From: Octopus vulgaris
Lineage: Eukaryota
Assembly (NCBI GenBank): GCA_951406725.2
Contig: OX597833.1
Span: forward strand, 13,516,001 to 13,580,000
Direction of reading: 5' to 3'
DNA: 64,000 bases
The translations under genes were made by a program, and so were the position numbers. Below the pieces are notes generated by a model, which was not told the DNA's origin, did no database searches, and saw only the letters and a program-made list of their open reading frames with translations. How positions within the stretch are numbered: the stretch's first letter is position 1; each line of letters opens with the position of its first letter. This document shows positions 61,851-62,289 of this stretch, in pieces.

Positions 61851-61872
61851 CAAAGGAAATAAATGAAAAACA

Positions 61873-61996
61873 GGATGGAAAGGGTTTTGCGGTACATATG
61901 TTTCGGGTTTATAGAACAACTTATTTTTAGATCAATGCATAATTGATATAATAGATAGATCAAAAACCGTCTTCAGCCGGGTACAATTGCTACACC
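61873..61996 (-). ncRNA. Family G hammerhead, left arm of a palindromic twin
   Basis: Minus strand: CCGG-CUGAAGA(61976-61970)-stem II-GAA-ACAUAUGU-A|CCGC. Confidence 0.68.
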
Positions 61997-62134
61997 TTAT
62001 AAAAAGGTTTGATAAAAACCCGAGTTTCATTGGGAAAGTACTTTTGTAAATCTTCAAAGGCCTACGAAGATTTACAAAGATACTTTCCCAACATACTTTT
62101 TCTCAAACCTTTTTATAATGTGATACAAGTCTTT

Positions 62135-62264
62135 GGTGTGTAGCAATTGTACGCGGCCGAAGAAGGTTTTTGATCTATCTATTTATATCAATTATGCATT
62201 GATGTAAGAATAAGTTTGTTCTATAAACCCCGAAACATATATGTACCGCAAAACCCTTTGCACC
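62135..62264 (+). ncRNA. Family G hammerhead, right arm of a palindromic twin
   Basis: GCGG(62153)-CCGAAGA-AGGTTT...AAACCCC-GAA(62232)-ACATATATGT-A(62245)|CCGC; distal stem I GGTGT/GCACC. Confidence 0.68.
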
Positions 62265-62289
62265 CTGTTTTTCATGGATTTTATTTGAG

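Follow-up and report, generated by a model that had tools for sequence, protein, structure and literature searches.

The window analysed here, a 64,000-nt stretch of the Octopus vulgaris genome (contig OX597833.1, positions 13,516,001 to 13,580,000), carries near its end a palindrome with a hammerhead-like motif in each arm. We asked what this palindrome is, how it may have arisen, and whether its motifs derive from a ribozyme. An initial annotation, made from the sequence alone, had proposed a twin element of a non-autonomous Penelope-like retroelement (PLE) or retrozyme-like family, inserted by priming on both strands of a TA break and carrying two type I hammerheads with unusually large stems II. 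Our own reading, which we hold with good confidence, is that the palindrome consists of paired, 5′-truncated and decayed 3′ ends of a Hydra-clade PLE, lying head to head in (TA)n and likely primed from both nicked strands, and that the type I hammerhead of this family likely self-cleaves weakly in intact copies, as a dimer or with the help of protein, despite a stem II insert of 36–68 nt.

RESULTS

Two decayed hammerhead arms meet head to head between TA tracts

The near-palindrome, annotated at ~430 bp and centred on AGGCCT, spans 445 bp (61847–62291) with its centre at 62060/62061, and has (TA)n on both sides as described (Table 1). The arms are 80% identical over 235 alignment columns with 7 gaps, and both have the layout of a type I hammerhead, facing outward. 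The left arm has in addition suffered an ~18-nt deletion upstream of stem I and several private substitutions. With respect to the rest of the family the two arms are not mutual nearest copies (ranks 21 and 33 among 68 copies).

Table 1. Features of the palindrome and its two hammerhead motifs (window coordinates)
Feature	Position	Strand	Remarks
(TA)n target tract, left end	61800–61846	.	preceded by (AC)n, 61767–61799
Left arm	61847–62060	−	5′-truncated 3′ end (pLTR) of Hydra-clade PLE subfamily A, without tail, decayed
Type I hammerhead, left arm	61889–61980	−	predicted cut after 61893
Left-arm stem I	61980–61977 (CCGG), with CCGC	−	only 3 bp, private G>C
Left-arm core	61976–61970	−	CUGAAGA, intact; private C at 10.1
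Left-arm stem II insert	61905–61969	−	65 nt; GAAA follows
Left-arm stem III	61901–61894	−	palindromic; GUA triplet follows
Head-to-head junction AGG/CCT	62058–62063	.	no spacer; the arms share one starting position within the family
Right arm	62061–62291	+	same 3′ end on the other strand, same truncation point, without tail, decayed
Type I hammerhead, right arm	62153–62249	+	predicted cut after 62245
Right-arm stem I	62153–62156 (GCGG) / 62246–62249 (CCGC)	+	4 bp
Right-arm core	62157–62163	+	CCGAAGA; private U4>C
Right-arm stem II insert	62164–62231	+	68 nt; basal A·C, 5-bp basal helix, inner hairpin
Right-arm GAAA and stem III	62232–62235; 62235–62244	+	stem III palindromic; GUA triplet follows
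Right-end target	62292–62334	.	ATAC twice, then (TA)n tract 62300–62334

Most elements annotated in the arms are present: the palindromic stem III, GAAA and GUA triplet in both, and the AUCAAU/AUUGAU hairpin within the stem II insert. The 4-bp proximal stem I holds for the right arm but not for the left, and the same is true of the GCGG/AGG layout and of the GGUGU/GCACC helix in distal stem I. U4 is important for hammerhead catalysis; the U4>C change noted in the right arm is real, but it is private to that copy (1 of 68). Neither arm passes our strict long-stem-II descriptor, the right one failing at U4>C and the left one at its 3-bp stem I. The hammerhead is not the minimum free energy (MFE) fold of either arm, lying 1.6 and 2.9 kcal/mol above it with short flanks and ∼6 kcal/mol above it with 25-nt flanks, and the Rfam hammerhead search suggested in the initial annotation returned no match for the palindrome even at E ≤ 10. 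Both window copies are probably inactive.

The twin is a form of insertion and not the repeat unit

Searching the genome (2.8 Gb, 227 contigs) with the right arm gave 1507 first-look candidates; the 40 of these that were scored gave 44 matches of 80–100% identity. Our locus sample comprises 29 distinct loci of this focal family (30 taken, two of them overlapping). Throughout the sample, copies have a common 3′ end and variable 5′ truncation. Eighteen of the 29 stop right after the TTTGATAC site and 11 continue into a further tail of ∼90 nt. All 3′ ends but one (L005) run into simple repeats, mostly TA but also (CA)n or similar, which bears out the proposed (TA)n targeting. Two hammerhead arms within 1.5 kb are found in 4/29 loci (the window, L002, L013, and L017), and short inverted pieces in another four (L014, L016, L018, and L025). 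The other 21 have no inverted arm within 1.5 kb, so the twin is an insertion architecture and not, as first proposed, the element itself. Full-unit tandem arrays of the family were not found in the 29 loci; a partial-tandem architecture was seen. The window holds a second, more complex insertion of the family at 25458–26799, made up in order of a tailed inverted arm, a different repeat that interrupts the junction, an incomplete copy that ends in stem III, and a 500-nt copy lying in tandem after it.

We assigned the copies by eye to seven subfamilies, A–G, of which E–G were found via the open reading frame (ORF) described below and not via the motif. Conservation of the tail is high in its middle part (e.g. 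L022, about 1740–1810, + strand) across subfamilies A to F, and in C this part can fold into a hairpin; it is possibly a reverse transcriptase (RT) recognition site or a splice acceptor.

The parent carries motifs of Hydra-clade Penelope-like retroelements

Walking upstream from the hammerhead end, we passed through ∼2 kb of simple-repeat-rich 3′ UTR and reached an ORF, a linkage seen directly for subfamilies C–G. The ORF contains YRDD, PADKT, a CxCx5C linker, and CxxC..E..N..CxH. DKT stands in place of DKG (PADKTG in L098, L103, and L107), the CxCx5C linker lies between RT and endonuclease (L104, L107, L057, and L068), and the last motif reads CQLC..E..N..CxH in L057, L091, L104, and L107. 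The order of RT followed by a C-terminal endonuclease is visible (YRDD, then YIG near the C terminus), and all copies seen are broken. DKT, the CxCx5C linker and CxxC/CxH around E and N define the Hydra clade (PMC8557442, section 11), and by eye the ORF resembles Hydra-1_Obim and Hydra-Amil (PMC8557442 supplement). At the N terminus it has IRRIRWA where Hydra-1_Obim has IRRMRWKA, with the K replaced, and the RWK motif of the clade thus reads RWA here. Pfam gave no match on the ORF pieces of the focal family, one homologous protein has a weak RVT_1 match (E 0.0044), and an Atlas cluster match at 0.94 points to GIY-YIG, with 11% of the cluster members carrying PF01541. A homolog search found 25 proteins at 39–50% identity among 992 candidates; the one protein with a named source is from a cephalopod. 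The PLE origin proposed in the initial annotation is thus upheld by an RT and GIY-YIG-like ORF with Hydra motifs upstream of the hammerhead in subfamilies C–G.

The layout of the element is best followed in L098, where an inverted arm, a 5′ hammerhead, the tail, a broken ORF, the 3′ UTR and a second hammerhead follow one another; the tail is therefore the sequence ahead of the ORF. This element measures ∼5.6 kb, with a 3′ UTR of ∼2 kb and an ORF start ∼200 nt downstream of the cut site. Just a few bases separate the start of its 5′ pLTR (L098:8483–8290, − strand) from the hammerhead core downstream, from which it follows that the cDNA passed the cut site twice and needed an uncut tandem or a circular template. 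As far as sequence motifs can tell, the parent carries the Hydra motifs tested and departs from the clade in being neither a short element nor the bearer of a canonical hammerhead.

A Naiad identity of the ORF fragments was rejected in view of the C-terminal endonuclease and the Hydra motifs. An ORF in L047 and L056, lying within a TA run, comes from another PLE family and was rejected as parent. This second Hydra-like family (L056:5219–3528, − strand, L101, and L109) has a 564-codon open stretch and sits in a TA run inside the UTR of the focal family; our descriptor found no hammerhead belonging to it in L101 or L109.

The claim that the family is non-autonomous does not hold for subfamilies C–G, which run into the RT and endonuclease ORF; no subfamily A copy was seen joined to it. 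Subfamily A, to which the window arms belong, could then be a non-autonomous, retrozyme-like derivative of PLE 3′ ends mobilised in trans, again without the twin as its unit. Among the copies examined none of subfamily A or B reaches the ORF, and even L008, the A copy of greatest length, ends in (TA)n after ∼670 nt. Animal retrozymes have been argued to derive from pLTRs (bioRxiv 10.64898/2026.07.22.740005), and two other families of this genome, families 2 and 3 below, do form tandem arrays. Against this, A copies share ∼500 nt of 3′ UTR at 85–95% identity with C-type copies, whose subfamily reaches the ORF, and both A and B connect to C via this common UTR. Subfamily A copies moreover have no fixed 5′ end and form no full-unit tandem arrays, and heavy 5′ truncation is normal for PLEs (PMC8557442). 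We regard mobilisation in trans as unlikely and treat subfamily A as part of the Hydra-clade PLE.

The hammerhead core is invariant across subfamilies

For 40 copies chosen to cover subfamilies A–G, we aligned the hammerhead and its surroundings. Comparing the seven subfamily majorities, 0/12 core columns vary versus 31/66 flank columns (Fisher p = 0.0024, in a test that treats alignment columns as independent, which they are not). A core better conserved than the rest of the repeat is what the initial annotation had taken its ribozyme to require. By the same measure 38/59 insert columns vary, and 2/15 of the stem I, stem III, and N7 columns. The core elements CUGANGA, GAAA, and UH are intact in 58 of 68 copies, and our strict descriptor had no matches in 150 locally shuffled windows.

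The base of stem II is conserved as a helix. It is kept while the length of the insert varies from 36 to 68 nt, and has a median pairing probability of 0.77–0.87 at four of five paddings versus 0.00 when the insert is shuffled. Stem II has no short loop 2 and contains a 3′-side bulge after the basal helix. Positions 10.1 and 11.1 are unpaired (A·C, A·A) in 36/40 copies; the three subfamily G copies have G-C (two) or G·U (one) there, and two of the three show an A-U for G-C swap beside it. Stem III of subfamily G stays palindromic after a double change (L100 and L101), and one stem I pair is broken in two of the three copies. The annotation's caveat about a non-canonical 10.1–11.1 pair is thus correct for most copies but less serious than feared, because extra or mismatched bases at this place are built into the published descriptor of minimal PLE hammerheads (PMC4209133) and U·U is common at the foot of stem II in Hydra-clade ribozymes (PMC8557442). 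We rejected the distal part of stem I as a conserved helix: it is 92.9% paired, but mostly by G·U, and breaks in subfamilies E and F. A single compensatory change, with G-C replacing U-A in 6 copies, was seen in a middle helix of 3 bp.

Structure prediction gives a less favorable picture. A three-helix pairing with open stem I is possible in all subfamilies, and is the predicted minimum only with short flanks: a hammerhead-like MFE fold was obtained for 30/60 copies with 2-nt flanks, 1/60 with 15 nt, and 0/60 with 25 nt, where the hammerhead lies 3.4–10.4 kcal/mol above the MFE in 10/10 copies. RNAalifold on the 40 copies returned two small non-hammerhead hairpins and not the hammerhead. Covariation in the focal family is weak. 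Double-change pairs (6 versus 5.2 in shuffles; 190/500) are not above expectation; only the covariation score exceeds that of shuffles (4/500), which relatedness of the copies can cause. Folding z-scores of the whole ribozyme range from −1.2 to +1.7.

In several subfamilies the predicted folds pair the core with U-rich sequence that lies upstream of it. For A, B, C, and G, though for neither E nor F, this predicted pairing joins UCUUUGG to the CUGAAGA core; the corresponding window positions are 62131–62137 and 62157–62163. The annotation had suggested AAAACCC as a conformational switch; this sequence is present in only 4/68 copies, and by the predicted folds UCUUUGG is the better off-state candidate.

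That AT-rich repeat DNA should resemble a hammerhead here by chance alone seems very improbable to us. Chance would account for the missing Rfam match and for the failure of RNAalifold to recover the fold. The shuffled windows with their lack of descriptor matches, the invariant core, the position of the motif in a pLTR just upstream of tail and ORF, and the same architecture in three other families all speak against it. A different possibility is that the motif has lost catalysis and persists as a relic, or that it is kept for a role other than cleavage, such as binding of protein or dimerisation. The wider-context folds, in which the hammerhead is not the predicted minimum, fit this, and so do genomic copies that run ∼50–140 nt past the cut site. 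For PAc, a Poseidon PLE of Anolis, hammerhead mutants are reported to be without effect on insertion in vitro, and no RNA-seq reads end at the cut site; on the other hand, the PAc hammerhead cuts when protein is added (PMC11167929). In the octopus, 12/12 catalytic columns are invariant across subfamilies, and three further families keep the full core and an NUH triplet with stems of their own. We therefore think a dead relic or a role without cleavage improbable, though less so than chance resemblance.

The type I hammerhead with an unusually long stem II stands, on the strength of a core and basal helix conserved in seven subfamilies as the master lineages evolved. Taking the modelled folds into account, we read it as a genuine ribozyme, though a weak one that folds conditionally. 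This agrees with what is reported of PLE hammerheads, which have low activity in vitro (PMC4209133), and of the PAc hammerhead, which is assisted by protein (PMC11167929). Cleavage would occur after GUA, and dimerisation could proceed via stem III with its palindrome; stem II may in its apical part be tolerated length and not a functional part. Contigs from 4 of 22 runs, when aligned to L106, had neither joints nor clusters of ends; contigs of this kind do not preserve the ends of RNAs.

Most divergent pairs carry a tail on one arm only

How the two arms came together can be judged from the tails of divergent pairs. We counted by eye 16 pairs with both ends visible (L057, L062, L091, and L096 were omitted, as their two outward ends are not both visible; L058 and L067, with several kb in between, may each represent independent insertions). 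The tail is on exactly one arm in 14/16 pairs, on both in none, and on neither in two, the window and L098; this pattern departs from independent assignment (p = 0.0017). For 6/10 pairs on opposite strands, the partner is the nearest or second-nearest of the 68 copies to either arm, and the arms of young twins are near-identical (d = 0.000–0.024 for L104, L106, L098, and L013).

PAc nicks both strands of its AT-rich targets and extends both, and its RT starts at two sites, giving two classes of 3′ ends that delimit a tail (PMC11167929). By analogy, both strands of a nicked (TA)n tract would prime reverse transcription of the element RNA, with one RT start at the GATAC end and the other at the end of the roughly 90-nt tail, and the two truncated cDNAs would then be joined at their truncated ends. 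The one-tail asymmetry fits this scheme. Priming on both strands, as put forward in the initial annotation, is thus a likely route, given the 14 one-tailed pairs and the in vitro precedent from a PLE.

Alternatively, the palindrome could have formed by fold-back, either through self-copying of one cDNA or through a later inverted duplication, instead of the joining of two cDNAs. This concerns the joining step only and is compatible with the Hydra-clade identity of the arms. In the window, the arms start at the same base without a spacer and share two changes versus the subfamily A majority, and the near-identity of young twin arms fits fold-back as well; a second arm stopping at an internal TA-like site would also give one tail per pair. 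The arm starts of the other short twins examined differ (488/565 in L013, 481/581 in L017, and 479/689 in L018), and extension of both strands has been shown in vitro for a PLE (PMC11167929). We rate fold-back as the less likely route, with an appreciable chance of being right, above all for the symmetric junction in the window, and favor the joining of two cDNAs primed from opposite strands.

Three further families have long stems II

The strict descriptor also caught three further long-stem-II families, with inserts of 54–81 nt. Family 2 (L092:5718–5830; L110–L131) has a GUU triplet and a stem II with A·A at its base and an AT-rich insert of 81 nt. Its units of ∼616 nt form dispersed arrays with a tandem spacing of 604–618 nt, and of 894 candidates the 40 scored are ∼100% identical; judging by its sequence, it looks like a currently amplifying retrozyme. 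Family 3 (L097:2000–2400; L132–L153) has a 68-nt insert, an 8-bp stem I, frequent inverted arms, a tandem spacing of 488–490 nt, and 1580 candidates at ∼98% identity; it has the most canonical predicted monomer fold of the four families. The insert has a folding z-score of −3.9 in family 2 and of −4.7 in family 3.

Family 4 is represented in the window itself by a copy at 10040–9812 (− strand; core at 10036) with a 55-nt insert and a GUC triplet, 5′-truncated at a TA run and with its 3′ end in (TA)n. Four folded copies of this family have inserts of 54–65 nt; most copies have G10.1-C11.1 and a 12-nt palindromic stem III, and the first-look search gave 1049 candidates. Family 4 is a homolog of family 3 (they align with a score of 204, and 200 shuffles reached 112 at most), with compensatory changes between them in stems I and III when compared by eye. 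Rfam at its gathering threshold found no hammerhead in the loci of the four families.

A near-identical fragment of a Neptune-like PLE ORF with a weak Pfam GIY-YIG match (E 0.0009) occurs in L090 and L092:4370–5411. In L092 a TA tract and an inverted piece lie between it and family 2, and we did not take it as the partner of that family. At L094:1986–2040 (+ strand) lies a short-stem hammerhead-like motif with a 14-nt insert; long inserts are thus not universal in this genome.

DISCUSSION

The palindrome in the window is ordinary PLE debris with an architecture already known for these elements. Published features of PLEs already include inverted pairs and insertion into (TA)n, as well as hammerheads paired on opposite strands and additional bases where stem II begins. 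Hydra-clade PLEs as described by Craig et al. (2021, PMC8557442) have the same protein motifs, with the endonuclease at the C terminus; they insert into (TA)n and carry a type I hammerhead near the 3′ end. Penelope-13_HM of this clade, like our palindrome, has an inverted 5′-truncated copy with a hammerhead on both strands; inverted 5′-truncated copies and one-ended tails of PLEs are reviewed in the same paper. The minimal PLE hammerheads of Cervera and de la Peña (2014, PMC4209133) are likewise of type I and located in pLTRs, with a 4–5-bp stem I, an extra base after A9 and a palindromic stem III, and opposite-strand pairs of them, 100–700 bp apart, were reported at that time.

The focal family differs from these precedents in several ways. 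Hydra-clade elements are mostly shorter than 3 kb, as opposed to the ∼5.6 kb of L098, and the hammerhead of Hydra-1_Obim differs from ours in sequence (PMC8557442). Stem III has 2–3 bp and is not minimal, unlike that of the minimal hammerheads (PMC4209133). PAc belongs to a different clade, and its hammerhead overlaps the ORF start (PMC11167929), which here lies downstream. The main difference is stem II: published Hydra hammerheads have a stem of 3–7 bp and a loop of up to 10 nt (PMC8557442), and the descriptor for minimal PLE hammerheads specifies 3–7 bp and a loop 2 of 3–10 nt, with extra N10/N11 allowed (PMC4209133), so that motifs of the focal type fall outside it.

The initial annotation suggested that this variant was undescribed. 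We found no description of a 50–80-nt stem II in animal PLEs or retrozymes in the literature searched, which left some work on PLE hammerhead variants uncovered; there is, however, a precedent in PLE-X1 of spike mosses, where a long stem II of 9 bp with a ∼35-nt loop was flagged as non-canonical (PMC8557442, File S2). Those elements come from plants, lack an endonuclease, target rDNA, and have a shorter insert of unrelated sequence, unlike the focal family. Animal non-LTR retrozymes carry type I hammerheads in tandem units (PMC7229834; bioRxiv 10.64898/2026.07.22.740005). Non-coding tandem units with a hammerhead are what we see in families 2 and 3, and not in the focal family, which is a truncated coding PLE. 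The units of families 2 and 3 (∼616 and ∼488 nt) exceed the 170–400 nt reported for retrozymes and have long stems II (PMC7229834; bioRxiv 10.64898/2026.07.22.740005).

We take the long-stem-II hammerhead to be a conserved, recurrent variant. More tentatively, and with somewhat less than even confidence, we suggest that type I hammerheads with a 50–80-nt stem II may form an active, overlooked class in this lineage, with thousands of copies in four or more repeat families, which fall into three sequence types unrelated to one another. Two of these would be currently amplifying tandem retrozymes longer than the reported size range; cleavage would take place without a short loop 2, with a tertiary contact provided by the stem II bulge or by the PLE protein; and one tail per twin would be genome-scale evidence of two-strand priming from two RT starts.

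Both Rfam and the published PLE descriptor miss long-stem-II motifs, and calls of “no hammerhead” may therefore be undercounts. The Naiad “half-core” hammerheads, whose second half lies 35–50 nt away and which include that of an octopus Naiad (PMC8557442), are one example of a possible undercount. Families 2 and 3, being young, near-identical, and tandem, are ready substrates for studying cleavage and circularisation without a short loop 2, and the tail asymmetry of the twins offers a countable genomic readout of the mechanism by which PLEs integrate.
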